From a virus: 44,553 nucleotides of DNA. A program made the position numbers and the translations under genes. Below are positions 9,305 through 24,645 of this stretch, in pieces. Within the stretch, counting starts at the first letter, position 1. Every line of letters begins with the position of its first letter. The stretch lies in IMG/VR virus record IMGVR_UViG_3300037474_000099; one strand, given 5' to 3'. The notes beneath the pieces are model-generated. The model did not search any database. It was not told where the DNA came from and saw only the letters and a list, made by a program, of their open reading frames with translations.

Positions 9305-10825
9305 TTAATATCCGGTTAAGTTATCTCTATTTGATTTTACAACACGTTCAATGCGTCTTTCTTCAGATTCAAAATCATGTTTTGATTTTGCAACCCAATC
9401 AAACAATGACGTTATGTATTTTAAAGCATCCATTAAATGATCTGCTTGATTTTTGGCTGGTTTATTTGGATCTTTAGAATCATATCTATAAATTCTAAGT
9501 TCATTTAATGTATTTTGTAAAGTAGAAAAAATTTTTAATTTACCGGTCTCAAATAAACCTAAAACACGAGCTATACCGGCTTCTATTGCATTTTCTCCTT
9601 CGGTTAAATCTAATCCTAAAGATCTATAAATATCTATTAACATTCTTCCATCGGCATTTCGACCTCCGCCTGATGGATCGCATATTCCTGGTATCCACGA
9701 ACCTTTGGCTTTTATACTTTCAGCGTGAATTAGAGGTAATTCTTCTCCTCTATAATATTCTGAATAAATATATAGTTCGTCCGTCGAAGGATCTTTAGCT
9801 CCCCAAAGTACTGCAGTCTTATGCCAACCAAAATCCATTGCGAAACATCTTGGCCAATAGTCTGGAATCATAAAAGGTTTTACAGTAATTAAATCTTCAT
9901 CAACTGGATAAATTCTTCCTGATCCTAATGTAGGAATACCTTTTCTTCTCGCATCTCGTTCATGTTTTGGAATTTGATTAATCATAGTTTCCTGATCTTC
10001 TTTTGAAAGATGAGGAACTTGACTCCATTCTACCCGACAAATATATTGATCGGGGTTTTCTATGGGACTACCCGTGGAGGGAAATTGTCCATTAGGTAAA
10101 AATTTTAAAACTACTTCACTTAACCCTTTTAAAGGAGTAAATGCTAACATAGCGATTCCAGGTTCTTTAGATTTACCTATACCCATTAATCGCATCAAAC
10201 ATTCTGTATAGATATCTTCTCTGGGTTCTTCATCAAACAGAATTACATCTACTTTTGCTGCTTGAAACTGTTCTCGTTGCATTTCGTTAGTTTTAACAAT
10301 TAGAGAAACAGTATGTCCTGACATATGTTTAATAATAGCTGAACCGATTGCTCCCGGTGTACCTGGCATTGCATAATAATCGACAATACCGCAACCATTA
10401 TTCTTTTCAGCTAATGGAAGAAGGCCTGTTCCTATTTCTTCTCCAGCTTCTCCAAATAATAAGCGTTGAGCAGAATCTCTAAATAATGCTCCAGATTCTC
10501 CAATAATCCAAACTGTAGTAGGTTTTTTAAATTTCTTTCCTTCCCACCAATCTGGATACATTCCGGTTAAATGAAAACATAGTTCAACTAAAGTTGTAAA
10601 ACTTTTACCCGAACGATTGCCGCCCATATAAACTCTGAATCTATGATCTTTTCCTTTTTTCATAAATTCCATAGCCGGTCCATATAAATCTCTTCTTAAT
10701 GGACCCTTATCCGGAAATACTAATTTTAATTTATTATACTTATTATATTCAGATAAAGCTTGAAGTGATTCAGCTATTTCTGCAAGTTCTAGATCAGTTT
10801 TATTATTCAGATTGGTCAGATTCAT
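9305..10825 (-). CDS. terL: Terminase large subunit
   Basis: Walker A YMGGNRSGKSFT, Walker B VDVILFDEEP, and a C-terminal RNaseH-like nuclease region (FAMDFGW...CDPSGGG...DAL). 506 aa. Confidence 0.9.
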   Translation of the reverse strand: MNLTNLNNKTDLELAEIAESLQALSEYNKYNKLKLVFPDKGPLRRDLYGPAMEFMKKGKDHRFRVYMGGNRSGKSFTTLVELCFHLTGMYPDWWEGKKFKKPTTVWIIGESGALFRDSAQRLLFGEAGEEIGTGLLPLAEKNNGCGIVDYYAMPGTPGAIGSAIIKHMSGHTVSLIVKTNEMQREQFQAAKVDVILFDEEPREDIYTECLMRLMGIGKSKEPGIAMLAFTPLKGLSEVVLKFLPNGQFPSTGSPIENPDQYICRVEWSQVPHLSKEDQETMINQIPKHERDARRKGIPTLGSGRIYPVDEDLITVKPFMIPDYWPRCFAMDFGWHKTAVLWGAKDPSTDELYIYSEYYRGEELPLIHAESIKAKGSWIPGICDPSGGGRNADGRMLIDIYRSLGLDLTEGENAIEAGIARVLGLFETGKLKIFSTLQNTLNELRIYRYDSKDPNKPAKNQADHLMDALKYITSLFDWVAKSKHDFESEERRIERVVKSNRDNLTGY

Positions 10826-11577: not shown

Positions 11578-12006
11578 TTATACCAACTTTTTAGTTATGA
11601 AAGTTTTTAGTACGGATCCTATATTTAATTGTGTCATAATCTTTTCAATAGTTCTGCATGGAATATAACCCATTACACCTACTTTTAAAAGATCTAAAAC
11701 TTCTTGCATCATGGGAGAAAGAGGTTTGTCAAAATTAGGAGGGACGTAACCAAAAAACCAAGATCCAATTATTACCATTAAAAGGACCATTAATACAGGT
11801 CTCCAGGTTCTTTCTAACCAAGAACCTTGAGTCAATATTTGAGAAATAGCATTTGCAGAAGCAGTTACACTTGCAGCATCCGCATCATTTAATTTATTAA
11901 CTGATTCTAAAGCTGATTGAATTGTTTTTGCTTGTTCGCCCTTAAATCCAAATAGGCCTGTGAAGAAAGAAGAAACACCACTGATAAGCAAAGTTAAGAA
12001 AGGCAT
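11578..12006 (-). CDS. GTA-type 3-TM holin-like protein
   Basis: N-terminal GxxGxxxG-rich helix, then the central W.ERTWRPVLMVLLMVIIGSWFF segment characteristic of the 'holin of 3 TMs for gene-transfer release' family (recognised from memory). Confidence 0.55.
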   Translation of the reverse strand: MPFLTLLISGVSSFFTGLFGFKGEQAKTIQSALESVNKLNDADAASVTASANAISQILTQGSWLERTWRPVLMVLLMVIIGSWFFGYVPPNFDKPLSPMMQEVLDLLKVGVMGYIPCRTIEKIMTQLNIGSVLKTFITKKLV

Positions 12007-12031
12007 CTGATTAATTCTTATAATTATACCG

Positions 12032-12059
12032 TTGACATTGCCAGTATATGTGTTAATAT
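12032..12059 (+). promoter_or_regulatory. Near-consensus sigma70 promoter pointing against the late operon
   Basis: TTGACA (12032-12037), 16-nt spacer, TAATAT (12054-12059). Confidence 0.55.
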
Positions 12060-12065
12060 AACTAA

Positions 12066-12222
12066 AATACTAGCTTATTAGAATAAGAGGGTTTATGACC
12101 TAGTGACCCAATACACCGTGATTAGATATTTTCCCGTCTTTATTCAGTATCGTCTCTTAATCATATTCGGGGTGCGGCTGTTGACGTTATCTCTGTATTA
12201 AGTTCTTAGTCGGCGCAGATGC
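12066..12222 (+). ncRNA. Candidate antisense RNA (~155 nt) opposite the leader of the holin-like gene
   Basis: Would start downstream of the 12032 promoter. The stretch is locally GC-richer and lacks ORFs. The hairpin GTCGGCGCAGATGCGGGAC followed by TTT at ~12199-12222 is a possible 3' end. Confidence 0.3.
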
Positions 12223-12245
12223 GGGACTTTAACTGCCGTGAATGT

Positions 12246-12374
12246 CTATTCTTTCATTGCTTCAATAGCAACTCTTACTTTCTCTATCTTATCCTTGATA
12301 ATTGGAACAACTTTAATCGCTACTCCAACTCCTGCGGCAAATCCTATTGAAAATACTCCTAACATTAATAACAT
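12246..12374 (-). CDS. 42-aa single-TM peptide (MLLMLGVFSIGFAAGVGVAIKVVPIIKDKIEKVRVAIEAMKE)
   Basis: My own translation (below the ORF-track cutoff). GGGAG RBS lies 5 nt upstream of the ATG at 12374; TAG at 12248-12246. Gly-zipper TM plus an amphipathic charged tail. Confidence 0.55.
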   Translation of the reverse strand: MLLMLGVFSIGFAAGVGVAIKVVPIIKDKIEKVRVAIEAMKE

Positions 12375-12383
12375 AATAACTCC

Positions 12384-12411
12384 CTAAAAATAAGAGCAGT
12401 CAGGCCTGCTC
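12384..12411 (-). terminator. Intrinsic terminator (second one in the late leader)
   Basis: On the minus strand: GAGCAG-gcctga-CTGCTC followed by TTATTTTTA, directly abutting the RBS of the 42-aa ORF. Confidence 0.6.
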
Positions 12412-12523
12412 AGTCCCCTACTTTCGTATTATGAATTTTTTGGTATCAGGTTGTAGGCACCTTGTTCTGCATTGCACAGAAAGACTCTGTATTATATATT
12501 CTAATAGATCAGAGTCTGTAAAG

Positions 12524-12676
12524 CTAATTTAACTGTTTACCACAGTCTAGACATAGTATTAAACCATCATCAGTTGAAAATTCAATCCATGTTCCATCAA
12601 CTACAGCATTTAAAATTTCTTCATGTTTTAGATTATTAAATAACTTAAATTGAATATCTTTATGGCTACAGTTCAT
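12524..12676 (-). CDS. 50-aa protein (MNCSHKDIQFKLFNNLKHEEILNAVVDGTWIEFSTDDGLILCLDCGKQLN)
   Basis: My own translation. ATG at 12676, TAG at 12526-12524. C-terminal CxxC. Confidence 0.45.
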   Translation of the reverse strand: MNCSHKDIQFKLFNNLKHEEILNAVVDGTWIEFSTDDGLILCLDCGKQLN

Positions 12677-12694
12677 TTAATATTACCTAGTAGT

Positions 12695-12730
12695 ATAAAT
12701 AAAAAAGGAACATCCTGTCGCCGTGTTCCT
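12695..12730 (-). terminator. Intrinsic terminator closing a ~110-nt leader RNA
   Basis: On the minus strand: AGGAACA-cggcgacagga-TGTTCCT (7-bp stem, + coordinates 12706-12730) followed by TTTTTTATTTAT. Confidence 0.6.
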
Positions 12731-12812
12731 GTAGCGTATAGCTTCTAGTCCATGACTATTTCATTCTGACAATTACTGCTATATAGTATATTTTAAATAA
12801 ATTTGTACTTAC
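12700..12812 (-). ncRNA. Candidate short terminated leader RNA (6S-RNA-like product of the late promoter)
   Basis: Defined only by the promoter at 12819-12847 and the terminator at 12695-12730. No ORF longer than 2 codons lies inside. Confidence 0.35.
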
Positions 12813-12818
12813 TTATAT

Positions 12819-12847
12819 AGTATAATAGACAAATCAATATTTGTCAA
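12819..12847 (-). promoter_or_regulatory. Near-consensus sigma70 promoter with an embedded palindrome (candidate late promoter)
   Basis: On the minus strand: TTGACA (12847-12842), 17 nt, TATACT (12824-12819). The spacer contains the inverted repeat GACAAAT-attg-ATTTGTC, which overlaps the -35. Confidence 0.6.
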
Positions 12848-12878
12848 GTATTTTATAAATATAATTTATTAGTTTTAT

Positions 12879-13064
12879 TTAACTTTCTTTTACGGTTTTA
12901 AACCAACCGGATCCTTTTAATTTAAAAGAACTTAAAGATATTATTTTTTTCAAAGAGTTAGGATCATTACAGCTAGGACATATATGATTATGTTCCTCAG
13001 TAGAATTTTCAAATAATTCAAGCAGATGGGAACATTGTGTACATTTATATTCGTATATTGGCAT
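12879..13064 (-). CDS. FmdB/CxxC_CxxC_SSSS-type zinc-ribbon protein (61 aa)
   Basis: MPIYEYKCTQCSH....CPSC signature of the FmdB putative-regulator zinc-ribbon family. Confidence 0.65.
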   Translation of the reverse strand: MPIYEYKCTQCSHLLELFENSTEEHNHICPSCNDPNSLKKIISLSSFKLKGSGWFKTVKES

Positions 13065-13074
13065 TTTAAAATCT

Positions 13075-13566
13075 CTAAAGTAATTCTAATACTATTCCTT
13101 CAAAATAATTTACGGTATTATAATTATTTGGCGAGGCTATAGAATTAGTTATATATGCTTGACCGTTTATGCAAGGAACAGCCCATACTCTATCGCCACA
13201 ATCTAATTTTATTTTCCGAGTTATTCTATTAGATTGATTGTATTTAACATTTTGATTAGAAGGTTGATAAGCTACTGAATCATCTCCAGCTATTTCTCCA
13301 CCGATTGATCCATCAGGGGGTGGTAATATATTTTTAATAATTAACAATGTGAGGCCGGAATCTTGAGCTGGCCTTTCCCATAGAATATTAGCATGAAATT
13401 CTACAATCATAGGACATGACGCTACAAAACAAGAATTTACTGTGTCAAAACAACCAGTTGTATCCCATTCAAGAAGGTCACATTTTAACGGGGTGTGACG
13501 TGAATAAGGAATGAATAATTGATGGCCAACTGAATAAGCATGAAATGATGAAAGAGGTTTTACCAT
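13075..13566 (-). CDS. Stand-alone C1q/TNF-like jelly-roll domain protein (putative)
   Basis: FHAYS..., ...GCFDTVNSCFVASCPMIVEFHANI..., LLIIKN..., GDRVWAV..., NYFEGIVLE follow the order of conserved C1q-globular-domain strands (FSA / tG.F.cp.pG.Y.F / l.kN / GD.VwV / FsGfLl). AGGAG RBS. Confidence 0.45.
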   Translation of the reverse strand: MVKPLSSFHAYSVGHQLFIPYSRHTPLKCDLLEWDTTGCFDTVNSCFVASCPMIVEFHANILWERPAQDSGLTLLIIKNILPPPDGSIGGEIAGDDSVAYQPSNQNVKYNQSNRITRKIKLDCGDRVWAVPCINGQAYITNSIASPNNYNTVNYFEGIVLELL

Positions 13567-13637
13567 TTAAAATTTTCTCCTATATTTTTCAAGTACTTGA
13601 CTATTTTAAAAGCGGGTAGTAAGTATAGTGTTAGATG

Positions 13638-13665
13638 TTATGTAACTTACATAAGGGATCCCTTA
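13638..13665. repeat. Compound palindrome upstream of gene 13566
   Basis: TTATGTA-act-TACATAA (13638-13654) overlaps the perfect 14-bp palindrome TAAGGGATCCCTTA (13652-13665). Confidence 0.8.
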
Positions 13666-13737
13666 ACAATTCTTTTCCCCTCCGGGTAGGTCTTTATTCA
13701 GTTATAGAATCCAAGTAAGAATCATTAGGCCAAAGCC

Positions 13738-13757
13738 AGACAGTAAATGTCTTTTTT
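13738..13757 (+). terminator. Weak orphan plus-strand terminator-like hairpin
   Basis: AGACA-gtaaa-TGTCT followed by TTTTT. No annotated plus-strand gene lies upstream. Confidence 0.3.
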
Positions 13758-13830
13758 ATCTAAGATAGACTTAAGATATAATTATTTATTTATATTCAAT
13801 AAGTTATCCAGTTATAATACTATCCTATAT

Positions 13831-13878
13831 ACTAACCTATTGATTATATTAACTAACCTATTGATTATATTAACTAAG
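13831..13878. repeat. 21-bp tandem direct repeat x2.3 (iteron-like)
   Basis: ACTAACCTATTGATTATATTA at 13831-13851 and 13852-13872, then a partial ACTAAG. Followed by 2 x GAGTATTAA (about 13891 and 13911). Confidence 0.85.
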
Positions 13879-13915
13879 TTATAAGTTAGCGAGTATTAAT
13901 TATAGCAAGTGAGTA

Positions 13916-14092
13916 TTAAGTAGAGGGGTTAGGTGTATCATTATCAGGTAACACAGGTAATCTAAGATCATCAGTATGATAAGCAAGAACATCTACAAGA
14001 TAATAAAGAGCATAACAAGGATGACTATCTAATAACTCTATAAACCTTCTATATTCTTCTTTACTTAGGACATCTATATCCCTATCACTCAT
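13916..14092 (-). CDS. 58-aa orphan protein (MSDRDIDVLSKEEYRRFIELLDSHPCYALYYLVDVLAYHTDDLRLPVLPDNDTPNPST)
   Basis: My own translation. GAGGA RBS. Codon usage (CTT, CCT, AGG, GAT) looks different from the rest of the genome. Confidence 0.45.
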   Translation of the reverse strand: MSDRDIDVLSKEEYRRFIELLDSHPCYALYYLVDVLAYHTDDLRLPVLPDNDTPNPST

Positions 14093-14171
14093 CTAACATA
14101 TCCTCGCTAGAAGCTCGTATCTAAGTTCTAAGGTACTTTCTTTTATAAGAGTCAGATAACTAACTACTAAC

Positions 14172-14321
14172 TTATTCATAATCATCATGACCGTTATCTA
14201 ACAACTTATAATTACAAGCTACAAAGTGTTTGATTAATAAAGAATTATCTACTAAGTGAGTAACAGCATCTATCAATACATCAGGAAGATTATCACCACA
14301 TACTGTACATTTAGTCTTCAT
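14172..14321 (-). CDS. 49-aa orphan protein (MKTKCTVCGDNLPDVLIDAVTHLVDNSLLIKHFVACNYKLLDNGHDDYE)
   Basis: My own translation. AGGTG RBS. Its own promoter lies 30 nt upstream. Confidence 0.45.
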   Translation of the reverse strand: MKTKCTVCGDNLPDVLIDAVTHLVDNSLLIKHFVACNYKLLDNGHDDYE

Positions 14322-14351
14322 AAGGCACCTATTTGTTTAATTCTTATACTA

Positions 14352-14379
14352 AGTATAGCATAGGTTATAAAATGTACAA
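14352..14379 (-). promoter_or_regulatory. sigma70-like promoter for the 49/58-aa ORF pair
   Basis: On the minus strand: TTGTAC (14379-14374), 16 nt, TATACT (14357-14352). The -10 is part of the 13-bp palindrome TATACTaAGTATA. Four TAAGATA heptamers (14384-14417) lie immediately upstream. Confidence 0.45.
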
Positions 14380-14673
14380 GTATTAAGATAAGATATAAGA
14401 TATTGATTAATAAGATAAGTTATAAATATTAGGCATAGATTGATCTAGAGCATAGTGATAGATACTTATCTTTAGTTAAAGAACTTAATTAATAACATGA
14501 ACTAATTAACTTATCCACGTTATCCTTAATTAACTTAAGAGCTTGCCTAAGCAAGCGAACCTATCATAAACATAATAAGTTCAAATAGTTATCTATCTTC
14601 CATATCAGCTATGCTGTGTATACTCTAAGTACTCAGACTTAGTTGTCCGTGACTTATACATAACAATCAAATA

Positions 14674-14943
14674 CTAACACTCAGGATCGTCATTATTACT
14701 AGACATTCTTTCACTATCATTGTCCTTCTTACGATCTATGAGTCTATGAGACATGCCCTGACTAAGCTCAATATCCCTAGTTCTATCACGAGCAATATAC
14801 TTATGAACTACCTTACTAACTTCTTCCATTAAATGGTATAACTCATTCTCACTAATGTACTTAACATGTTCATGACTACTACGTCTGTAGTAATCTTCTT
14901 TTCCTTTAAAGGTAAGTTCTATAAGTAATCCGTCATATCTCAT
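14674..14943 (-). CDS. 89-aa highly charged orphan protein
   Basis: ORF track. Isolated, with about 350 nt of non-coding DNA on each side. Confidence 0.5.
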   Translation of the reverse strand: MRYDGLLIELTFKGKEDYYRRSSHEHVKYISENELYHLMEEVSKVVHKYIARDRTRDIELSQGMSHRLIDRKKDNDSERMSSNNDDPEC

Positions 14944-15172
14944 TTTATATCTCTTTGATTATTATAATTATATAAGTGTATACCTTAATTATCAGGTGTA
15001 GATTGATATATAAACTCTAGTAGTTATAAGAACTTATATACACCGCTCTCACGAGGCGTTGATAGATAGTTAATTAGACTAGCTAATCATACTAACAAGT
15101 AATATGCTTTATTTGCTTCAGGGACACATAAGCCCTATATCTGTTTATTTCCTTATTAGTTGGCACTTACTA

Positions 15173-15201
15173 TTGACATCTTCCAATTGTTGTGACATAC
15201 T
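15173..15201 (+). promoter_or_regulatory. Early promoter P1
   Basis: tATTGACA: TTGACA (15173-15178), 17 nt, CATACT (15196-15201). The first plus-strand ORF is ~110 nt downstream. Confidence 0.55.
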
Positions 15202-15311
15202 TATCACATGACCTGTTTATTATCCTTAATGTCCTTCCTCTAGATAAACGAAGGCAAGGTATACATAATAAGTATAGCATATAATTAAAATTTGTCAAGA
15301 AGAGAGTGAAT

Positions 15312-15461
15312 ATGAATGGTATACTATTAGCGATAGTAGCATTAATATATGTTTTAGTAGCGATAAATATGCTATTATCTAATCAAATAGGATTAGGTTG
15401 TACATTTATTTGCTATGCGTTATCTAATGTATTTTTATATATAAGTTCTTTAAATATATGA
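15312..15461 (+). CDS. 49-aa two-TM peptide (MNGILLAIVALIYVLVAINMLLSNQIGLGCTFICYALSNVFLYISSLNI)
   Basis: My own translation. AGAGAG RBS-like sequence. Confidence 0.45.
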   Translation: MNGILLAIVALIYVLVAINMLLSNQIGLGCTFICYALSNVFLYISSLNI

Positions 15462-15468
15462 GGTTAAT

Positions 15469-15627
15469 ATGAATAAATTTAAAGCAATATATGACAATAT
15501 GTTAAGTTTCTTACTAGGGTTATTAATGGGATTATTGTTAGCCTTACTGTTAATTTTAAATGATACGTATAATCAAATAGATACGAATATTGATAACTAT
15601 ATGAATTATAATAATAAATATTTTTAA
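15469..15627 (+). CDS. 52-aa single-TM peptide (MNKFKAIYDNMLSFLLGLLMGLLLALLLILND...)
   Basis: My own translation. AGGT RBS. Confidence 0.45.
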   Translation: MNKFKAIYDNMLSFLLGLLMGLLLALLLILNDTYNQIDTNIDNYMNYNNKYF

Positions 15628-15634
15628 AAAAATA

Positions 15635-15662
15635 TTGACACCTTATATAAATTTGATATACT
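15635..15662 (+). promoter_or_regulatory. Early promoter P2
   Basis: tATTGACA: TTGACA (15635-15640), 16 nt, TATACT (15657-15662). Confidence 0.6.
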
Positions 15663-15696
15663 AAAATTGTAAGATAAATAGATATAAGGAGGGTTT

Positions 15697-15831
15697 ATGA
15701 ATACCGAATTATATACAGGAAGAATGGGAGCAGTAGACAAATTAAGAGATAATTTTAAAAAACAATTAGAAAAATTACAAAAAGAGTTAAAAAAACTAGG
15801 TAAAAAAATTGATAATATGAATAAAAATTAA
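15697..15831 (+). CDS. 44-aa basic coiled-coil peptide
   Basis: My own translation: MNTELYTGRMGAVDKLRDNFKKQLEKLQKELKKLGKKIDNMNKN. Strong AAGGAGGG RBS. Confidence 0.55.
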   Translation: MNTELYTGRMGAVDKLRDNFKKQLEKLQKELKKLGKKIDNMNKN

Positions 15832-15858
15832 TATTAATAAATGTACAAGGAGACTGCA

Positions 15859-15993
15859 ATGAAAACAACTATTTTAACTGTTATTGTTTATTTCGTAATA
15901 TCTTTAGTATTGCTTTCACATTCTGTATCTGTAATTGCTAATAGTACAGAATCTCTTAAAAATTGGAATGAATCTGGTAAAACATTAGATTAG
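15859..15993 (+). CDS. 44-aa N-terminally hydrophobic (signal or TM) peptide
   Basis: My own translation: MKTTILTVIVYFVISLVLLSHSVSVIANSTESLKNWNESGKTLD. AAGGAG RBS. Confidence 0.55.
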   Translation: MKTTILTVIVYFVISLVLLSHSVSVIANSTESLKNWNESGKTLD

Positions 15994-16003
15994 AGGTATA
16001 TAT

Positions 16004-16174
16004 ATGAAAACTTTTGAAAGGTTATTTGATGAATTTGACAATAAGATTAATGAATTTAAAAAATTAGTCAATTTTATAGAAAATGAAAATAAACGTTTAA
16101 AATCAGAAATTGAGCAAAAAGAAAAATTATTAAAATCTCAAGGTATTAAAATTACTTATGACTTAATAAAATAA
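16004..16174 (+). CDS. 56-aa coiled-coil peptide
   Basis: My own translation: MKTFERLFDEFDNKINEFKKLVNFIENENKRLKSEIEQKEKLLKSQGIKITYDLIK. GAGG RBS. Confidence 0.5.
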   Translation: MKTFERLFDEFDNKINEFKKLVNFIENENKRLKSEIEQKEKLLKSQGIKITYDLIK

Positions 16175-16189
16175 TAGGAGAATATATTA

Positions 16190-16735
16190 ATGAGAAAACT
16201 TAAAGATATTAGAAGTGACCTAGAGTTACATTATATGCAAGAATCCAGAACTGTGTTTTTTCATGGAGAAGTAGGACAATTTAAATTAGAAGATGCTTTG
16301 AGAAATTTAGATTATCTGGCTAATATAAGTAAGAAACCTATTATTTTAAGAATTTGCTCACCAGGAGGATCTGTAGATTATGGACTAGTGTTATATGATT
16401 ATATTAAAATGTCCAAAGTCCCTATTCATACGCTATGTTCAGGAATGGCAGCTTCAATGGCGGCTATATTATTAGGAAGTGGCAAAAAAGGAAAGCGTAT
16501 GGCTACTAAAAGTAGTCGTATTATGATACACCAACCATCATCAGGTTATATAGGTAAAGCGAGTGATATTGAAATTCATGCAAACGAGACTAAAAGGATT
16601 AGGAACCTTTTAAATACTATAATATCTAAAGATACAGGCCAGCCTTTAAAGAAGGTTGAAAAAGATACCGAATTAGATTTATGGATGACAGCTGAAAATG
16701 CTTTACAATATGGTATTATCGATAAAATTGTATAG
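16190..16735 (+). CDS. clpP: ATP-dependent Clp protease proteolytic subunit ClpP
   Basis: ICSPGGSV, catalytic Ser in GMAASMAA, His in IMIHQPS, Asp in EKDTELDLWMTAENALQYGIIDKIV. Full-length at 181 aa. AGGAG RBS. Confidence 0.9.
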   Translation: MRKLKDIRSDLELHYMQESRTVFFHGEVGQFKLEDALRNLDYLANISKKPIILRICSPGGSVDYGLVLYDYIKMSKVPIHTLCSGMAASMAAILLGSGKKGKRMATKSSRIMIHQPSSGYIGKASDIEIHANETKRIRNLLNTIISKDTGQPLKKVEKDTELDLWMTAENALQYGIIDKIV

Positions 16736-16742
16736 AGGCTAT

Positions 16743-17009
16743 ATGAATAATATATTAAATTTAAATCTATCTAAAGAAACACAAGATAAACTATTTGAAA
16801 TAGGATTAAACTTATTAAGTAAAAACAAATTATTAGGTATAGACTTATTTTATCAATATGAATCTTTTCCTAAATTATCTTTTAAAAAATTAATAATAGC
16901 TGCTACTATATTGTATATACTAAAAAAGGAATTGTCATATTTTCAATCATTTAGATATAAATGTAAGGTATTGATTAATAAAGTTAAAAATATTTTAAAA
17001 AAGTATTGA
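16743..17009 (+). CDS. hypothetical protein (88 aa from MNNILNL; the track start at 16698 lies inside clpP)
   Basis: GAGG RBS before the ATG at 16743. C-terminal hydrophobic segment. Confidence 0.5.
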   Translation: MNNILNLNLSKETQDKLFEIGLNLLSKNKLLGIDLFYQYESFPKLSFKKLIIAATILYILKKELSYFQSFRYKCKVLINKVKNILKKY

Positions 17010-17034
17010 CATATTAATATATAAGGAGGATAAT
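17006..17034 (+). promoter_or_regulatory. Early/middle promoter P3
   Basis: tATTGACA: TTGACA (17006-17011), 17 nt, GATAAT (17029-17034). Confidence 0.5.
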
Positions 17035-17057
17035 TAATATATAGAGGAGCAATTAAC

Positions 17058-17333
17058 ATGTACATAATAGATTTTTTTAGATATAAACTAGATACTAAAA
17101 CGTTTAAGGAAGATAAGGAAGGAATTGAAAGTTGTTATTTTGTAGATTATTATGAACATGTTGGATATGATGATTTAGATACAGTTTTTACGGAAATAAA
17201 AAAGTTTTTAAATAATAGTTATGGATATGTTACAGTTAATAGAGTAAAAATGAGAATAGATAATTTTAAAAAATTTAAAGAAGATATGTTAAAAAATAAA
17301 ATTATTTTATTAAATAATAAGGATAATATTTAA
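17058..17333 (+). CDS. hypothetical protein, tandem paralogue 1 (91 aa)
   Basis: Shares (I/L)(D/N)F(F/Y)RY.L(D/E)...F...(K/R).FL(N/D)N.YG(Y/F)V with the next ORF. Confidence 0.6.
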   Translation: MYIIDFFRYKLDTKTFKEDKEGIESCYFVDYYEHVGYDDLDTVFTEIKKFLNNSYGYVTVNRVKMRIDNFKKFKEDMLKNKIILLNNKDNI

Positions 17334-17353
17334 ACTGTGTTTATAGGTGACGT

Positions 17354-17650
17354 ATGATTATTTTAAATTTTTATAGATATGAATTAGAACAAAAACCATT
17401 TATCGGTAGATGTAAATCAAGTTTTAGATATATGTCTTATAAAAAAATTCTTGATCATATAATTACAGTAGAAACTTTATCTATCGCTAAAGATAAGATT
17501 AGAGATTTTTTAGATAATTATTACGGATTTGTTGACATAATTCCATTTAGAATGACAGTTAATAATAAAAAAGATTTTTTACAAAAGATGGATGATAGAG
17601 GAATTCATGCTGTTTATTTTACTAAAGTTAAGATGGGAGTTGATTTATGA
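17354..17650 (+). CDS. hypothetical protein, tandem paralogue 2 (98 aa)
   Basis: See 17058..17333. Confidence 0.6.
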   Translation: MIILNFYRYELEQKPFIGRCKSSFRYMSYKKILDHIITVETLSIAKDKIRDFLDNYYGFVDIIPFRMTVNNKKDFLQKMDDRGIHAVYFTKVKMGVDL

Positions 17651-17784
17651 GATGCAAAGCCTGTAATAATATATTGGAATCTAAAGATTTTTTAATAGAT
17701 AAATTAGGAGAATTATGTGTTAAGTGCGTAATATGGGTAGAAGACGATGTTAAATTAAAAAAAGATTGGGATGATGATAAATGA
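17647..17784 (+). CDS. 45-aa CxxC...CxxC zinc-ribbon-like peptide
   Basis: My own translation: MRCKACNNILESKDFLIDKLGELCVKCVIWVEDDVKLKKDWDDDK. ATGA overlaps at both ends. Confidence 0.5.
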   Translation: MRCKACNNILESKDFLIDKLGELCVKCVIWVEDDVKLKKDWDDDK

Positions 17785-18461
17785 GATATAAATGTGAAGA
17801 CTGCGGAGCTAACAGAGGATTAGCTAAATATTCTTCCGGAGATTGGTGTTTTTCTTGTAATAAATATTTTAAAAATAAAAAATTAATCGATTTATCATTT
17901 AATAAAAAACTAGATGAAGTTAGTTTATCAGATAATTTTCCTATTAATGCTATTAACTGGCTTGCTCAATATCAGATATTTAAAAATGATTTTAAAAACA
18001 ATAACTTAAAATGGTGCAATAATTATAAAAGAATATGTTTTTGTTTTGGTAAAGACTTGACAAATTATTATTTACGGAGTATAATACCTAATGAAAGAAA
18101 TAAATGGATTTTAAAATCCGAAAGAAAAGAATTTTATACTAAACAAGGAGTTAGTACTTCAAATTTAATTATTGTAGAGGATCCATTAAGCGCTATTAAA
18201 GTTTTTTCTTCTAAATTATGTGATGTAGTTGCTTTGGGAGGTACTAATTTTAATTCTTCTATATTAGTATCTATTTTTTTAAAATACGACAATTTGGTAC
18301 TTTGGTTAGATGGTGATTCTCCTGGTAGAATAGCTTCTAATAAATTTAGACAGAAATTTAAGCTTTTAAAACCTATTAAAATAATAAATACAAAAAAAGA
18401 CCCTAAAGACCATTCTTATGAACAAATTGAGGAAATATTAAATGAAAAAATATGTTCATAA
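17781..18461 (+). CDS. DNA primase (zinc ribbon + TOPRIM)
   Basis: CEDCGA..x14..CFSC zinc ribbon. TOPRIM residues IIVEDPLSAIKV and LWLDGDSPGR. Confidence 0.75.
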   Translation: MRYKCEDCGANRGLAKYSSGDWCFSCNKYFKNKKLIDLSFNKKLDEVSLSDNFPINAINWLAQYQIFKNDFKNNNLKWCNNYKRICFCFGKDLTNYYLRSIIPNERNKWILKSERKEFYTKQGVSTSNLIIVEDPLSAIKVFSSKLCDVVALGGTNFNSSILVSIFLKYDNLVLWLDGDSPGRIASNKFRQKFKLLKPIKIINTKKDPKDHSYEQIEEILNEKICS

Positions 18462-18497
18462 ATGTCCTTATATAAATGAAACGAATTTGGGACTAAT

Positions 18498-19694
18498 ATG
18501 ATTGAATTAACTTTACTTAAAGCTTTATCTAATAAAGAAAGTTTTAATAAATATAAAAATTTATTAAATCCTAAAACTCTATCTCAACATTCTTTAATGT
18601 TATTAAAAGACTATGAAGTATATTTTCACAAATATTCTCATGATAGGATAGATTGGTCTTTATTTCCTACTTATTTTTTTGAAATAAGGCATCCTTACAT
18701 GGATGAAAAATCTATATTAGAATATAAAGAAATTATAAGTAATATATCTACATTACATGTAAATGGAGAAATTAAAGATATTTATAAAGGATTTGAACAA
18801 CAGGAATTTTATTTAGAATTGCAAAGATTATTAGATAACAATATAGATGTCAAAGAATTAAAAATAAAATTAGAAGATTTTTCAAAAACAATTGAAGAAA
18901 AAACAGAACTAGAAGTAGAAATGGATTTAAAAGAATCTTTAAACTATACAAATCGATCAGAAGGATTAGTTTGGAGATGTGAAAAACTTCGAAATCATTT
19001 CCAGGGTGGATTAATTAAAGGTGATTTTGGAATAGTAGCGGGATATGTAGATACAGGTAAATCTAGTTTTATAGCTTCAGAAGTATCTTATATGGCTACT
19101 CAATTAAAAGATGAAGAATATATATTATGGTGTAGTAATGAAGGTGATTGGAAATCATTATTGCCCAGATTATATTGCGCGACGTTAAATTGTACAGATA
19201 AAGATTTAAGGCAATATTTAGATAAAGCTGAAGAAAAGTATTTAAATTTAATGAAAGGAAATAAAAACAGAGTAATTATTAAGGATATACAAGGATGGTC
19301 ATATGTAGAATTAGAAAATTTGATTAAATCAAATCCTCCTAAATTATTAGTCATAGATTTATTAGATAATGTATCTGGATTTAACAAAGAATCTGAATGG
19401 AGTCGGTATGGTAAACTGTATCAATGGGCACGAGAAATAGCTACACATTATTGTCCAGTATTAGGAGTATCGCAGTTAAATGGAGATGGAGAAAATAAAG
19501 AATATCCAAGTATGTCACGTTTAAGAGGTTCAAGAGTAGATAAACAAGGTGCCGCTACCTTTCAATTGCATATAGGATCTTTAGAAGGCAATAATGACAT
19601 TAGATATTTAAGTATGCCAAAAAATAAAATAAACAGTAATAAATCTTGGAGAGTTCAAGTAAAATTTGATGCTAATAGATCGAGATTTATATGA
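18498..19694 (+). CDS. Replicative DnaB/T7 gp4-type helicase
   Basis: Walker A GYVDTGKSSF, Walker B LLVIDLLDNV, and the SQLN motif. Confidence 0.8.
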   Translation: MIELTLLKALSNKESFNKYKNLLNPKTLSQHSLMLLKDYEVYFHKYSHDRIDWSLFPTYFFEIRHPYMDEKSILEYKEIISNISTLHVNGEIKDIYKGFEQQEFYLELQRLLDNNIDVKELKIKLEDFSKTIEEKTELEVEMDLKESLNYTNRSEGLVWRCEKLRNHFQGGLIKGDFGIVAGYVDTGKSSFIASEVSYMATQLKDEEYILWCSNEGDWKSLLPRLYCATLNCTDKDLRQYLDKAEEKYLNLMKGNKNRVIIKDIQGWSYVELENLIKSNPPKLLVIDLLDNVSGFNKESEWSRYGKLYQWAREIATHYCPVLGVSQLNGDGENKEYPSMSRLRGSRVDKQGAATFQLHIGSLEGNNDIRYLSMPKNKINSNKSWRVQVKFDANRSRFI

Positions 19695-19891
19695 TATATA
19701 AAGTACAAAGTAAAATGCAAAGTATATTTAACATTTATCATTTTGTTAGTCACAAAATTGAAGGAACTTATAAAAATAAAGCAGATGCTATAGGTCACCA
19801 ATACGTTTTATTTGCTGATCATTTAGCAAAATTAATATTGAAACAAGAAACTGAACTGAAGTTATTTGAAATAATAGAAGAGATTGAATAA
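19691..19891 (+). CDS. hypothetical protein (66 aa)
   Basis: ORF track. ATGA overlap with the helicase gene. Confidence 0.5.
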   Translation: MIYKVQSKMQSIFNIYHFVSHKIEGTYKNKADAIGHQYVLFADHLAKLILKQETELKLFEIIEEIE

Positions 19892-20333
19892 TGGGATCAT
19901 TATGTCTATAACACGTAAAAAAGCAGAGCAAATTGTAAATGAAAGTTTAGAATTGTGCAAACAATTGTTAAAATTAACAAAATATAAAATAACTGTTCAT
20001 ATATTGCATACTAAATCAGTATTCTTAAGAAAAAATGGTGCTAAACCTCAGGGAGAGATGGCAAGTTGTTATGGGTCAGAATATAGTAAATCAGCTGATA
20101 TTATAATACATTATGATAAACATCCTAATGATAGAGAAGTTCTTAGTTCTTTAATTCATGAATTATTACATTTAAAATTTGCTAAATTATCGGAATTAGT
20201 TACGTTGAAACAAAGAAAAGCTCATAATATAGAAGAGAATTTAGTAAGAGATTTTGAAGAATTGATAATGCAATTTTTAGACAATAGTCATAAACTTGTT
20301 AAACGGATTAAAAAATTGAGCAAAGAGAGGTAA
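19884..20333 (+). CDS. HExxH motif protein (putative zinc metallopeptidase; start may be 19902)
   Basis: The only recognisable feature is SLIHELLHLKF (HExxH). Confidence 0.35.
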   Translation: MNNGIIMSITRKKAEQIVNESLELCKQLLKLTKYKITVHILHTKSVFLRKNGAKPQGEMASCYGSEYSKSADIIIHYDKHPNDREVLSSLIHELLHLKFAKLSELVTLKQRKAHNIEENLVRDFEELIMQFLDNSHKLVKRIKKLSKER

Positions 20334-20336
20334 ATT

Positions 20337-20573
20337 ATGAAATTAAATGCAAAAGCTATATTACAAGCAGAATCGGTAAATGTAAATTTACAAACTGATG
20401 CTGTAGAACTTTTATTGGATGATGGACAAAGTTTAACATTAAGTTATAATGATTTGACAATAATGGAAGCTGTATTGCTAAAATTAAAATTTGCAGATCC
20501 AGTTATATCTCCTGGAAAGTCTACAGGAGATATATTTAAAGCTTTGAGTTTAATGGAACAGGAAACTAAATAA
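20337..20573 (+). CDS. hypothetical protein (78 aa)
   Basis: ORF track. Confidence 0.5.
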   Translation: MKLNAKAILQAESVNVNLQTDAVELLLDDGQSLTLSYNDLTIMEAVLLKLKFADPVISPGKSTGDIFKALSLMEQETK

Positions 20574-21250
20574 TGTATTTAGTAGTTGATTTAGAAACAA
20601 CTTGTAAAGAACGTTATAAAAGAAAAGGTAATCCTTTTTATAACAATATATTATGCTACGGTTTTAAGTATCAAAATAAGGAAGCTTTTGGCAAACCTTC
20701 AGACAATGTCCCTGAAGGATGGTTAAATGGAGTTACAGACCTTATAGGACATAATATAAAATATGATTTGTTATATCTATGGAGAAATAGAGAGCTTCAA
20801 GAGGCTTTTAAAAGGGGTTTAAATATATGGGATACGCAGTTAGCAGAGTATATATTATCAGGGCAACAGCATAAATATCCAGCATTGAGAGATATAGCAG
20901 TCAATAAATATGGTTGTAAAGAAAGAGTTAAGCATATTGAACAAGGTTTTAAAAATGGATTACTAGATACATCTGAAATACCAATGCCGTTGTTATTAGA
21001 AGATGTTACTAATGATGTCATTGATACCGAAGTAATAGCTTTAGAACAGTTAAGAAAATCTAAAGAGAATGGAATGTATAATTTAATTAAATCCCAAATG
21101 AATTCTTTACTAGCGACAACCGAAATGGAATATAATGGAATGTTTATTAATAAAAGTATATTAAAAAATAGAGAAACTGAAATAAAAAACCAGTTAGAAA
21201 TTTTATATAGTGAATTAAATCAAATAACAGGAAAATATTGGAATGATTGA
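20573..21250 (+). CDS. DNA polymerase A, 3'-5' exonuclease-domain ORF
   Basis: Exo I VVDLETT, Exo II LIGHNIKYDLLYL. Overlaps the polymerase ORF by 8 nt (ATGATTGA). Confidence 0.8.
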   Translation: MYLVVDLETTCKERYKRKGNPFYNNILCYGFKYQNKEAFGKPSDNVPEGWLNGVTDLIGHNIKYDLLYLWRNRELQEAFKRGLNIWDTQLAEYILSGQQHKYPALRDIAVNKYGCKERVKHIEQGFKNGLLDTSEIPMPLLLEDVTNDVIDTEVIALEQLRKSKENGMYNLIKSQMNSLLATTEMEYNGMFINKSILKNRETEIKNQLEILYSELNQITGKYWND

Positions 21251-22523
21251 TTTTAATCCTTCATCTACTAAACATTTATCTACTCTTCTTTTTGGAGGAG
21301 AAGTTAAATATGTAGAAAAAATCCCTAATGGAATATTTAAATCTGGAGAGAGAAAAGGAGAAATAAAATACAAAAATGAAGATAAAATTAAAAAATTTAA
21401 TGGGTTAGTTAAACCCTTAAAAGAATGGAAATCGGAAGCGGGTAATATAAGTACAGGAGATACAGTATTACAAATATTAGCTAAAAGACAAGATAAAGAC
21501 GCAGGAAAAATAGCTAAAATATTATTAGAAATAAGAAAATTAGAAAAAGAATTAAATACTTATTATAACGCTATTGGTGAATTGATATATGATTTTGATA
21601 GTACGGTAAAAGGCCAACTATGTCATTGTGGATACGATAAAGGATCCGAATTTGGAGGTGGTACATCTACTGGACGACTATCAAGCAGACATCCTAATCT
21701 ACAAAATTTTCCTAGAGCGGCTGATAGTCAAGTTAGAGAATTTTTTTCTAGTAGATATGGCGATAATGGAATTATTATAGAATGCGATTACAAGCAATTA
21801 GAAGTAGTAGTATTTGCTTTTTTAACCCAAGATGTTCAATTAATTGAAGATATAAATAATGGTATTGATATTCATAGAATATTAGCTAGCAGGTTATATA
21901 GAACCCCCGAAGCTTTAATTACTAATGAACAACGTCAACAGACTAAATTTAGTACATTTCATGTTATTTATGGAGGAGGATATAAATCCTTAGCTAAAAG
22001 AGAGAATATAGATGAAGAAATAGCAAAGAAATTTATTGATATTTTTTATGAAAGATATCCTCAAGCTAAATTATGGCAGGATAATTTAGTTAGACAAGTT
22101 AATAATACAAGAGATTTTGATAAAAAACTAGCTTATTTTCAATCAGTTACAGGTCGAATATATTATTTTCCTTTAATGGATCAGCCATATAAAAATGGAA
22201 ATAATGAAATATGGGTTTACCCTCCTAATATAAAAAACTATCCAGTTCAAGGACTTGCAACTGCGGATATAGTATTAATAATGCTAGGTAAATTATGGAG
22301 GCAAGCTATTGAAAACAGAGATAAATTTTTACTTATAAATACAGTTCACGATTCAGTAGTTATAGATTGTAAAAAAGAATTTTTGGATTTTACTTGCAAT
22401 TTAGTAAAAAATGAGTTAGAATTAGGATATGAGATTTTAAAAAATTTATTTAATATAGATTTTAACGTACCCTTGAAAATAGACATAAAGACAGGAAAAG
22501 ATTGGAGGAAATGCGGACTATGA
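21243..22523 (+). CDS. DNA polymerase A, polymerase-domain ORF
   Basis: Motif A CDYKQLEVVVFA, motif B RQQTKFSTFHVIYGGG, motif C NTVHDSVVID, and GRLSSRHPNLQNFPR. Confidence 0.85.
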   Translation: MIDFNPSSTKHLSTLLFGGEVKYVEKIPNGIFKSGERKGEIKYKNEDKIKKFNGLVKPLKEWKSEAGNISTGDTVLQILAKRQDKDAGKIAKILLEIRKLEKELNTYYNAIGELIYDFDSTVKGQLCHCGYDKGSEFGGGTSTGRLSSRHPNLQNFPRAADSQVREFFSSRYGDNGIIIECDYKQLEVVVFAFLTQDVQLIEDINNGIDIHRILASRLYRTPEALITNEQRQQTKFSTFHVIYGGGYKSLAKRENIDEEIAKKFIDIFYERYPQAKLWQDNLVRQVNNTRDFDKKLAYFQSVTGRIYYFPLMDQPYKNGNNEIWVYPPNIKNYPVQGLATADIVLIMLGKLWRQAIENRDKFLLINTVHDSVVIDCKKEFLDFTCNLVKNELELGYEILKNLFNIDFNVPLKIDIKTGKDWRKCGL

Positions 22524-22759
22524 AAAAAGATTTTAAAAAATCTAAAGAAGCTAAATTTATTAAAAATACTTTAAAAAAATCTAAGTTAAAAAAATCTAAC
22601 GTTAATAAATTTAAAAATGAACGTAAAAAAATATTAAATAAGTTGAAAGTAGATCTAGACAGGGTTAATCAAGGTGAAAAGTTTTTACTAAAATTAGCAG
22701 CTGTATTTTTACTATTTACTGTAGTAAGTATGTTTTTAATTTCGTTAATGCATTTTTAA
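22502..22759 (+). CDS. Lys-rich protein with a C-terminal TM anchor (85 aa)
   Basis: ORF track. The true start may be the internal MKKDFKK. Confidence 0.45.
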   Translation: MEEMRTMKKDFKKSKEAKFIKNTLKKSKLKKSNVNKFKNERKKILNKLKVDLDRVNQGEKFLLKLAAVFLLFTVVSMFLISLMHF

Positions 22760-22770
22760 TCGAGGCTTAT

Positions 22771-22905
22771 ATGAGAATCATGTTCAAAACCGAACGATAT
22801 TGCCATAAATGCCATAAAATTCGCAATGTTAACGAATTTAATAAAATTACTAAAAATTTTAGAATTTCAAGTGAATGTAAACAACATAGAGGTAAACAAA
22901 AATGA
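22771..22905 (+). CDS. 44-aa CxxC basic peptide
   Basis: My own translation: MRIMFKTERYCHKCHKIRNVNEFNKITKNFRISSECKQHRGKQK. GAGG RBS. Its stop overlaps the SSB ATG (ATGA). Confidence 0.5.
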   Translation: MRIMFKTERYCHKCHKIRNVNEFNKITKNFRISSECKQHRGKQK

Positions 22906-23477
22906 CACAATTTACAGGAGTGGTAAAAAAAGTAGTTTCTAAAGAAATTGATATTGCCAACAAGCCATTTATAAAACACGAAATCTCTATAGATTCAGAT
23001 GGCGAGACGAAAACAGTGTTAAAATTTACAAAACCAGAAACGACATTTGCTTTGGAAAAAGGGACTAAAGTTCAAGTAACAGGAGAAGAACAGGAAGATA
23101 AATATGGTAATACCACAATTAAAGTAAACAGTAAGCCTGAATCATTTGTATTGCTGGATCAAAACAACAAACCTAAAGATTCAGGAAAAACATGGACAAA
23201 TACTACTTCTACTACTGGTACCAAAGATGTGGCATTACGACCGACTTTCAATACATTTAATGGAGATGGTGCAAAACGTGGTAATGCATTAACTAATGCT
23301 GTAACTATGTTAATTCATAATAAAAACGGAAGTCAAATTACTATAAAAGATGCAGAAAAATTATTAGAATTAGCTAGAATGGTATTTAAAGTATCCACTG
23401 ATCTAGAAAATCCAGATACTACTTCTTCCACTAGTACAACAAAGGATTCTAATAATGAAGTTTCTCCATTCGATTAA
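22902..23477 (+). CDS. Single-stranded DNA-binding protein (putative)
   Basis: OB-like N-terminal half, a low-complexity T/S linker and an acidic/aromatic C-terminal tip (NNEVSPFD). Sits in the replication module. Confidence 0.5.
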   Translation: MTQFTGVVKKVVSKEIDIANKPFIKHEISIDSDGETKTVLKFTKPETTFALEKGTKVQVTGEEQEDKYGNTTIKVNSKPESFVLLDQNNKPKDSGKTWTNTTSTTGTKDVALRPTFNTFNGDGAKRGNALTNAVTMLIHNKNGSQITIKDAEKLLELARMVFKVSTDLENPDTTSSTSTTKDSNNEVSPFD

Positions 23478-24639: not shown

Positions 24640-24645
24640 GAGTAA

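Follow-up and report, generated by a model that had tools for sequence, protein, structure and literature searches.

The 44,553-nucleotide (nt) stretch of DNA analysed here, referred to below as the window, is IMG/VR virus record IMGVR_UViG_3300037474_000099, a metagenome-derived, podovirus-like genome of ca. 44.5 kb. A gene-poor island within it (positions 13567-15311) sits exactly where the plus-strand and minus-strand gene arms diverge. We propose, with a probability of roughly 55%, that this island is the leftward half of the central transcription-control region of the phage, and that it is built largely of RNA-level elements. Most of the island DNA outside open reading frames (ORFs) is transcribed-strand sequence in which base-pairing, rather than sequence, is conserved. 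A regulatory hub and a set of non-coding RNAs were among the candidates offered by the original prediction, which had been made by reading the sequence without database searches; they are supported by conserved promoters, an operator-like block, and compensatory pairing in two RNA domains.

The island had been described as ORF-poor, and this description was accurate. Plausible ORFs cover 597 of its 1745 bp (34%, the lowest coding density in the genome). There are three of them, all on the minus strand and coding for proteins of 58, 49, and 89 amino acids (aa), which we call ORF58, ORF49, and ORF89; the gaps between and around them measure 349, 79, 352, and 362 nt. With a permissive ORF caller (at least 40 aa) the coding fraction was 0.50 in the island versus 0.93 genome-wide, and windows centred on the island ranked lowest in coding fraction among all 1745-nt windows. 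The original prediction had named a sequencing frameshift that hides longer ORFs as a possible refutation. This was ruled out by four independent assemblies, which are 100% identical over the parts of the island that each covers, the sole difference being one copy of a 21-bp tandem repeat, and by indels between lineages that are not multiples of three. The indels in the leader upstream of ORF89 (leader A, below) are 10, 14, and 32 nt long, and therefore no conserved ORF runs through it. Two permissively called ORFs, at 13747-13884 on the plus strand and 15170-15298 on the minus strand, were rejected as non-conserved and because they overlap a repeat or a promoter. So was a micro-ORF that follows a GGAGG sequence in the operator-like block, as it is not conserved in the related lineage L008. 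A retron was dismissed for want of a reverse transcriptase, and a miniature transposable element because the island is single-copy.

Homologous islands were found in three lineages: that of the window, L008, and L078. The large terminase of L008 (IMG/VR 3300031716) is 86% identical to that of the window, and the rightward side of this lineage is supplied by a separate contig, L075. L078 was reached by a profile search of 1.8 billion proteins with an ORF89 alignment, which returned an 83-aa homologue (E 6e-11); it covers only the 3' two thirds of leader A, the 5' part being missing. The core of the island, i.e., leader A, ORF89, a second RNA domain (domain B), promoter P2, and ORF49, is syntenic in the three lineages, so that alignment with relatives, which had been suggested as a check for an indel, ruled out a recent one. 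L072 and L073, which are more remote relatives (holin 68% identical), have a junction without nucleotide similarity to that of the window. In both, a consensus promoter pointing in the late direction is followed by ORF-free DNA, at least 300 nt of it in L072 and 1.1 kb in L073. Judged by these comparisons, the island is a fast-evolving, gene-poor junction that persists across the phage group, and not an indel among close relatives. A scan of IMG/VR with a conserved leader block returned L008 only, and scans with ORF89 and with the 163-aa protein encoded next to the island returned no relatives. Two conserved blocks had no match in scans of genome contigs, which thus offered no prophage or host clue. 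Four nucleotide blocks, GTCCCTGAAGCAA, CAACGCCTCGNGAGAGCGG, AGCATAGCTGATA, and CTATCACTATGCTCTAGAT, were singled out as probes for further lineages.

The original prediction held that at least one of the small genes has its own promoter, and the promoter content of the region confirms this. The genome contains five perfect TTGACA-N16-18-TATA[AC]T sites versus 0.17 expected; each is situated ahead of co-oriented genes, and three of them are at 12.8-15.7 kb. The leftward promoter P_L (15271-15298, minus strand) consists of TTGACA (15298-15293), a 16-nt spacer, and TGc-TATACT (-10 element at 15276-15271), i.e., an 11/12 consensus match with an extended -10 element. Both hexamers and their spacing are kept in L008, and the P_L transcript is predicted to start near G15264. 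The promoter of ORF49, P2 (14352-14379, minus strand), reads TTGTAC, a 16-nt spacer, and TGc-TATACT, and its counterparts in L008 and L078 read TTGTAT-16-TGc/TGa-TATACT. A third promoter, P_R (15173-15201, plus strand), is directed rightward and comprises TTGACA, a 17-nt spacer, and TGa-CATACT; in L008 its hexamers are TTGACT and CATACT, the spacing is unchanged, and about half of the spacer positions differ. P_L and P_R have thus been conserved in L008 while their spacers diverged. P_L, P2, and P_R all display the hexamers, 16-18-nt spacer, and/or TGn extension of σ70 promoters. P_R transcripts are predicted to start near A15208, so that the predicted P_L and P_R transcripts converge and overlap by ca. 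57 nt (15208-15264). In the window lineage and in L008 (on the L075 side), the first rightward gene starts no more than 13 nt from the -35 element of P_L. Its promoter must therefore lie within the leftward leader, and P_R is the sole candidate promoter for the first plus-arm genes (15306-15627). These genes encode two small membrane proteins; the main early promoter is found to the right of them, at 15635-15662. A face-to-face promoter topology is also predicted in L072. No intrinsic terminator, i.e., a G+C-rich hairpin followed by a U-tract, was found on either strand of 13567-15311.

Downstream of the predicted P_L start, RNAalifold and single-sequence folds revealed the same closed RNA architecture in the window and in L008. 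This domain, leader A (14977-15265, minus strand), is ca. 290 nt long and lies 5' of ORF89. It is closed by an 11-bp helix, P1 (15265-15255 with 14987-14977), which begins at the predicted 5' end of the P_L transcript and is present in the minimum free energy (MFE) structures of both lineages. In L008, two of the 11 P1 pairs are compensated (U-A to G-C and C-G to U-A) and none is broken. In L078, the 5' strand of P1 is predicted to read about GGCUAUACUCU and to pair with AGAGUAUAGCC. A second long-range helix joins CAGGU (15215-15211) with ACCUG (14997-14993), and conserved hairpins are formed by CCUUC..GAAGG, UGUGA..UCACA, AGGG..CCCU, and CGC.CUC-GNRA-GAG.GCG, the GNRA loop of the last changing from GUGA to GAGA in L078. 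Insertions specific to L008 are self-contained hairpins, and two variable hairpins, var1 and var2, occupy fixed positions in the three lineages with unrelated sequences and lengths. One-sided changes in leader A (G-C to G-U and A-U to G-U) preserve pairing only in the minus-sense RNA. The computed fold energy is -65.6 kcal/mol for the minus strand versus -58.5 kcal/mol for the plus strand.

Domain B (14443-14642, minus strand; ca. 200 nt) lies 3' of ORF89. Its first hairpin, hp1 (14642-14625), has compensated pairs in L008 and L078. Two invariant and mutually complementary blocks, which are the most conserved non-coding blocks of the gap between ORF89 and P2, form the closing helix: AGCAUAG..GAUAG (block1, 14615-14593) pairs with CUAUC.CUAUGCU (block2, 14461-14443). 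The MFE structures of L008 and L078 include this helix, and in the window a fold that contains it is within 3.2 kcal/mol of the MFE. The second hairpin, hp2 (14556-14541), reads GCUUGC-UUAG-GCAAGC. Its stem is GCUUGC, GCAACC, or GCAGCC in the three lineages, each with an exact complement, while the UUAG loop is invariant. Three of six hp2 pairs are changed on both sides and pairing is 100% in all three lineages; nine of 500 shuffles reached the observed value. It is not a U-tract terminator, as only ca. five of the ten nucleotides that follow it are U in each lineage. The minus-sense fold of domain B has a z-score of -2.93, and none of 200 shuffles was as stable. Compensatory substitutions, by which structured cis-acting RNAs are recognised, were thus found in hp2, P1, and hp1, in a sample of two to three lineages. 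Neither leader A nor domain B matches a described RNA family. A search of the whole window against Rfam 15 at the gathering threshold gave no matches, a search of 11900-15800 at E<=5 returned only a chance match to a miRNA model (E 3.9), and no tRNA or tmRNA was found.

At the left end of the island, an operator-like region, block C (13620-13734, minus strand), contains GATTCT-N6-GATTCT, CCCGGAGGGGAAAAG, and two palindromes. One of these, TAAGGGATCCCTTA, lies at 13652-13665. The other, ATGTAAGTTACAT (13640-13652), is unique in the genome and is located over the -35 position of a TATACT -10 element (13627-13622). Block C is 79% identical to its L008 counterpart over 117 nt despite a different downstream gene (163 aa versus 80 aa), and its core, GGAGGGAAAAGAATTGTTAAGGGATCCCTTA, is retained in L078. 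Block C has the appearance of a promoter that is governed by an activator or a repressor and gives access to the late arm. The genes that follow it are mosaic: the window carries a 163-aa orphan and a 61-aa FmdB-type zinc ribbon (12879-13566), L008 an 80-aa protein (1782-2024), and L078 a 47-aa relative of that protein and a zinc ribbon (1565-1874). In all three cases the variable genes are bracketed by block C and by another conserved promoter just outside the island, P5 (12847 to 12819, minus strand), which is conserved in L078 and whose stretch aligns with L008.

ORF89 (14674-14943, minus strand) encodes a charged protein that is 56% identical to an 81-aa protein of L008. In this comparison non-synonymous divergence (pN) is 0.32 against a synonymous divergence (pS) of 0.77, and therefore ORF89 is, on sequence grounds, a real gene under purifying selection. 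Together with the 83-aa homologue of L078, its family is restricted to the three lineages among 5.8 billion and 1.8 billion proteins. Profile matches to P0048 (574 aa) and P0050 (1933 aa) consisted of many short stretches, P0048 being internally repetitive, and were treated as spurious. A PDB sequence search with ORF89 gave no match, and an AlphaFold model of ORF89 alone (pLDDT confidence score 54) was unusable. ORF49 (14172-14321, minus strand) encodes a protein with a CCHC motif, CxxC-x22/23-H-x3-C, and a GHDDYE tail. It is 49% identical to a 47-aa protein of L008 and has a 53-aa homologue with the same motif in L078; the frame is open and the motif and acidic tail are kept in all three lineages. 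We consider it a putative zinc-binding regulator. ORF58 (13916-14092, minus strand), which is preceded by a GAGGA ribosome-binding site, is present in the window lineage only; an eight-codon remnant of its start is left in L008, and there is nothing at that place in L078. None of the three proteins had a significant match in Pfam, PHROG, or PADLOC.

The island had also been called compositionally distinct, which holds for oligonucleotides and not for G+C content; the latter is ordinary (0.299 versus 0.308, 45th percentile). In strand-symmetric tri- and tetranucleotide distance to the genome, the island is at the 99.3rd percentile, and the six most deviant sampled 1745-nt windows all overlap it. 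The plus strand is indeed poor in G (13.1%, 3.5th percentile), which fits minus-strand transcription. The reported richness in TAAG, CTAA, and TTAT was reproduced: TAAG occurs 18.9 times per kb versus 3.9 in the rest of the genome (4.8-fold), CTTA 13.8 versus 2.7 times (five-fold), and CTAA and TTAT are ca. 1.9-fold denser, while ACTTA and TAAGT are ca. eight-fold denser than elsewhere. Part of the contrast is due to avoidance of these words in the remainder of the genome. Outside 12000-15700, TAAG and CTTA are under-represented in the coding bulk relative to Markov expectation (0.60 and 0.46, respectively), a scarcity in keeping with its extreme bias towards the codons AAA and TTA, and in the island both words occur at the frequency expected from the island's own trinucleotides. 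The hairpin-rich content may explain part of the symmetric excess of TAAG/CTTA and ACTTA/TAAGT.

Of three codons reported as uncommon elsewhere and used by the small genes, CTT and AGG stood up to analysis (fractions of 0.35 versus ca. 0.10 and 0.23 versus 0.05-0.10 in the other genes), while CCT is enriched in the island ORFs and yet not rare elsewhere (0.47). Similar biases were observed for AAG (0.58 versus 0.11-0.13), GAG (0.36 versus 0.09-0.15), AGT (0.71 versus 0.23-0.27), and TAC (0.31 versus 0.09). The pooled codon log-likelihood of the three ORFs lies five standard deviations below that of size-matched samples, and the bias is contributed mainly by ORF89. In the L008 orthologues, AAG is used six times to one AAA, CTT six times to five TTA, and AGG three times to three AGA; in late genes of L008, by contrast, AAA prevails by 141 to 26 and TTA by 150 to 18. 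Since synonymous sites are saturated, the odd codon bias has been maintained and not passively inherited.

The gene layout around the island is consistent with a control function. The minus-strand arm begins at 13566 with small genes, which are followed by holin (11578-12006), small terminase, large terminase (9305-10825), and SU10-type portal genes, and it extends beyond the window start; a minus-strand block at 44296-32098 with tail and head-completion genes, including one for a P22 gp10-like protein, reads as its continuation, and the size of the late arm is 26 kb. The plus-strand arm (15306-31922) contains small ORFs and genes for ClpP, a toprim primase, DnaB, a split PolA, an AAA+ protein, a 5'-3' exonuclease, endonuclease VII, and an endolysin. 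Among the genes of the window we recognised none for an RNA polymerase, sigma factor, integrase, or repressor, and the phage looks virulent. In the absence of detectable RNA polymerase, integrase, and repressor, the phage must use the σ70 holoenzyme of the host. Large terminases of the nearest isolates are at most 40% identical, and megablast and blastn searches of INPHARED with the island gave no nucleotide match.

If the island is indeed a control region, host polymerase would fire P_L at the onset of infection, and P2 would likewise be started by the host enzyme. P1 would bury the 5' end of the P_L transcript and, together with the dense folding, could keep Rho and 5'-end-dependent decay away from the long untranslated RNA. 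Domain B, whose UUAG loop is invariant, would punctuate the unit as a processing, pausing, or insulating signal. P_R, which faces P_L, may cause interference through polymerase collision and the 57-nt antisense overlap, and such interference would couple expression of the first rightward genes, i.e., those of the two small membrane proteins, to leftward transcription. Block C would guard the last promoter before the late genes, and ORF49 and/or ORF89 could act on block C or on polymerase and in this way time entry into the late arm.

Several observations weigh against this interpretation. Every transcription start was predicted from sequence. The face-to-face promoter layout is absent in L073, the -10 element of block C is degenerate in L078, and conservation of the P_R hexamers is not independent evidence, since they fall on conserved nucleotides of the leader. 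Only three lineages were available, and most of the predicted pairs lie in invariant, and hence uninformative, blocks. Fold z-scores of leader A are weak (-1.0 and -1.6), those of the L072 leader (-0.7 and -0.9) give no support, and the whole-leader shuffle control was not significant (73 of 500). A sliding-window alifold column-shuffle test did not discriminate, as a coding control, the holin gene, reached scores as good as those of the island and had one window with a z-score of -4; the test was not used as evidence. Template-switch mutation at the DNA level can also yield compensated short palindromes. For ORF49, pN was about equal to pS (0.38 versus 0.40), i.e., there was no excess of synonymous change. 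Finally, a control-region model leaves unexplained the odd codon usage of ORF89 in two lineages despite saturated synonymous sites.

It is conceivable, and we would put it forward only tentatively, that leader A and domain B belong to undescribed classes of large structured phage RNA, lie on either side of ORF89, and cooperate with its product. They would then make up a protein-independent or ORF89-assisted device that, much like HK022 put, renders host polymerase resistant to terminators and Rho as it transcribes the 26-kb late arm, or else a particle of RNA and protein with a target in the host; the region-wide, selectively maintained TAAG/CTTA content and AAG/CTT/AGT codon bias, the latter even within ORF89, would be a footprint of RNA-level function. 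We consider it rather unlikely that the island is an acquired moron or anti-defence cassette, in which small, self-promoted genes of foreign composition are accompanied by promoters, untranslated regions, and decayed remnants. This reading has partial support: the original prediction was right about the anomalies of composition and codon usage, k-mer usage being the most deviant in the genome and codons atypical, and the left edge is mosaic (ORF58 is confined to the window, and the adjoining gene sets differ in each lineage). In addition, each gene has its own promoter, the proteins are orphans, and the junctions of more distant relatives hold unrelated sequence. The core, however, is syntenic in three lineages, and no defence or anti-defence family was matched in PADLOC, PHROG, or Pfam, none of which is a dedicated anti-defence library. 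L008 orthologues keep the odd codons despite saturated pS, which argues for maintained constraint and not for a recent, unameliorated import, and conserved pairing of non-coding DNA is unexpected for decayed remnants. Of the features by which morons are recognised, the units have promoters of their own and an atypical composition; canonical terminators are missing from their ends, and presence/absence variation concerns only ORF58 and the genes to the left of the island.

A replication origin, the further candidate of the original prediction, found no positive support and seems improbable to us. In this case AT-rich, repeat-rich DNA between divergent promoters would be the start site for the phage DnaB, primase, and PolA; in a variant, initiation would be primed or activated by transcription, with the structured leader and its antisense partner serving as primer-control RNAs. 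Transcription-linked origins include the T7 primary origin, the R-loop origins of T4, and ColE1, in which RNA II is controlled by antisense RNA I, and a structured RNA with antisense overlap at its 5' end formally resembles the RNA II and RNA I pair. The island contains very AT-rich stretches, a 21-bp tandem repeat, TAAGATA repeats, and words similar to DnaA boxes, e.g., TTATCCACG at 14511; the cumulative GC-skew minimum is at ca. 15 kb, and strong promoters adjoin the replication arm. But the repeats and DnaA-like words are missing at the aligned positions of L008 and L078, and the 21-bp repeat, which is present in one or two copies in otherwise identical genomes, is unlikely to be an essential iteron array. 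There is no perfect DnaA box in the island, the one match to TTATNCACA in the genome being at 5190, and no replication initiator protein was recognised in the window. The skew minimum falls where the genes change strand and so is not independent evidence, and the conserved feature is pairing on one strand, not repeated binding sites. Least probable, in our estimate, is that the inverted repeats function at the DNA level, i.e., that the 11-bp arms of P1 (GTATACCTTG.. and ..AAGGTATAC) and the palindromes are sites of recombination, cruciform extrusion, or protein binding, for example as borders of an invertible P_R segment. The arms do flank ca. 270 bp with an outward-facing promoter, GTATAC is clustered (four of seven genomic copies at 14618-15324), and compensated arms fit DNA pairing as well as RNA pairing. 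On the other side, no recombinase was found in the window, and leader A has a single orientation in all four contigs that can be read across it, two of them from one lineage and two from another. Wobble changes preserve pairing on the minus-sense strand only, and the stems vary freely around an invariant loop, which is unlike a sequence-specific protein site.

As a transcription-control region, the island appears to resemble most closely lambdoid leader control, the P2/186 switches, the T7 early region, and Ogr activation, without the full set of defining features of any of these. Lambdoid leader control comprises the nut sites and N protein of lambda, the put RNAs of HK022, and the P_R'-6S RNA-tR' arrangement with Q upstream of lysis and packaging genes. 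The island shares with it a strong, constitutive host-type promoter followed by structured untranslated RNA, a location upstream of a holin, small terminase, large terminase, and portal operon, and small putative regulator genes directly upstream on the same strand. In contrast to lambdoid phages, it has no boxA/boxB pattern, no put-like two-stem element, and no Q homologue; a boxA-like word after hp2, AGCUCUUAA, is not conserved in L008 and was rejected. Leader A (ca. 290 nt) and domain B (ca. 200 nt) are also far larger than nut or put, and the island contains neither a U-tract terminator nor a match to Rfam.

In P2-like coliphages, face-to-face promoters are found in P2 (Pe and Pc) and in 186 (pR and pL, with starts 62 bp apart). 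Similarly, two converging σ70 promoters with a predicted transcript overlap of ca. 57 nt lie at the junction of divergent gene blocks in the window, and the arrangement is predicted in L072 too. Unlike those phages, the one studied here has no repressor, no Cox/Apl pair, and no integrase, P_R would serve two small membrane-protein genes only, and interference is a prediction. The T7 early region has promoters A1-A3, small host-takeover genes, and RNase III hairpins between them. Both systems belong to genomes of podovirus type and have a transcription unit that opens with consensus host promoters, tiny, fast-evolving orphans as early genes, and conserved intergenic RNA hairpins. The island differs in its closed multi-branch domains, which contrast with the single irregular hairpins cleaved by RNase III, in genes that face the late arm and have a promoter each, and in the lack of a phage RNA polymerase. 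Finally, the Ogr/Delta zinc-finger proteins (Pfam Ogr_Delta), late activators of P2 and P4, have a CX2C-X22-C-X4-C motif and use a TGT-N12-ACA dyad at ca. -55. ORF49, with ca. 50 aa and CxxC-x22/23-H-x3-C, has a similar size and spacing, and its gene directly precedes the late genes and a promoter region with palindromes. The sequences themselves are not detectably related, ORF49 having no Pfam family at E<=1; its ligands are CCHC instead of CCCC, and the dyad is TGT-N5-ACA at ca. -30. The resemblance may thus serve as a lead only.

Other parts of the island are specific to the window lineage. AT-rich filler at 13770-13915, to which no strand is assigned, does not align with L008 or L078. It includes the 21-bp tandem repeat (13826-13867; TTAGTTAATATAATCAATAGG in the minus sense), which is present in two copies in the window and in one in L002, an assembly from another run that is otherwise 100% identical to the window; this is a copy-number polymorphism within one phage population. 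A promoter-like site with an extended -10 element, TGc-TATAAT (13907-13899, minus strand), was seen in the window only, and an insertion of ca. 60 nt, rich in TAAGATA, upstream of P2 is also lineage-specific. The filler and the insertion look like slippage products in unconstrained DNA, and the features most reminiscent of an origin are these lineage-specific, non-conserved stretches. GTATAC palindromes at 14618, 14978, 15259, and 15319 account for four of the seven in the genome within 700 bp, and two of them form P1. Elsewhere in the genome GTATAC is under-represented (three observed where base composition predicts ca. 15), perhaps because the phage avoids restriction.

Further observations concern the surroundings of the island. 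A second gene-poor stretch lies directly upstream of the holin gene (12006-12530, minus strand), with counterparts at L008:2385-3135 and L069:195-790. It encodes a 42-aa membrane mini-ORF (12374 to 12246), and contains non-coding blocks kept in three lineages, e.g., CACGGTGTAyTGGGTCACTAGGTCA, AAGTAGGGGACTG, and CTAAGAACTTAATAC, with hairpin-looking, lineage-specific insertions between them. A further structured leader, or else the true promoter region of the late genes, may be located here. In L073 (3573-4884 and 5451-6023), a 1.3-kb ORF-free junction lies behind a consensus TTGACA-17-TG-TATACT promoter, and genes for a Mom-like protein (PF25680) and Cpn10 are present; the window has none of these. 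The early arm of the window encodes a ClpP-family protease (16190-16735; Pfam E 1e-55) and a separate ClpB/ClpX-like AAA+ protein (23455-24639). Because of their location distant from the capsid genes, the two may be a phage-borne proteolytic pair and not a head-maturation protease. The family A DNA polymerase is encoded in two pieces by overlapping ORFs, 20573-21250 (N-terminal part, 225 aa, which likewise matches DNA-polymerase families) and 21243-22523 (polymerase part, 426 aa), and an additional ORF similar to a polymerase exonuclease subunit is located at 27903-28787.

Virulent phages that have no polymerase of their own must time a long late operon through the host enzyme alone. For low-GC, uncultured podovirus-like phages, the island is a compact candidate for such a device, as it combines consensus and convergent promoters, a palindromic putative operator, two orphan mini-proteins, and two large predicted RNA domains. 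Should the RNAs not be functional, odd k-mer and codon statistics would have persisted through saturating divergence without recent import. Should they be functional, they would represent new classes of structured phage RNA, and non-coding RNA would take up about two thirds of the control region in an otherwise tightly packed genome.

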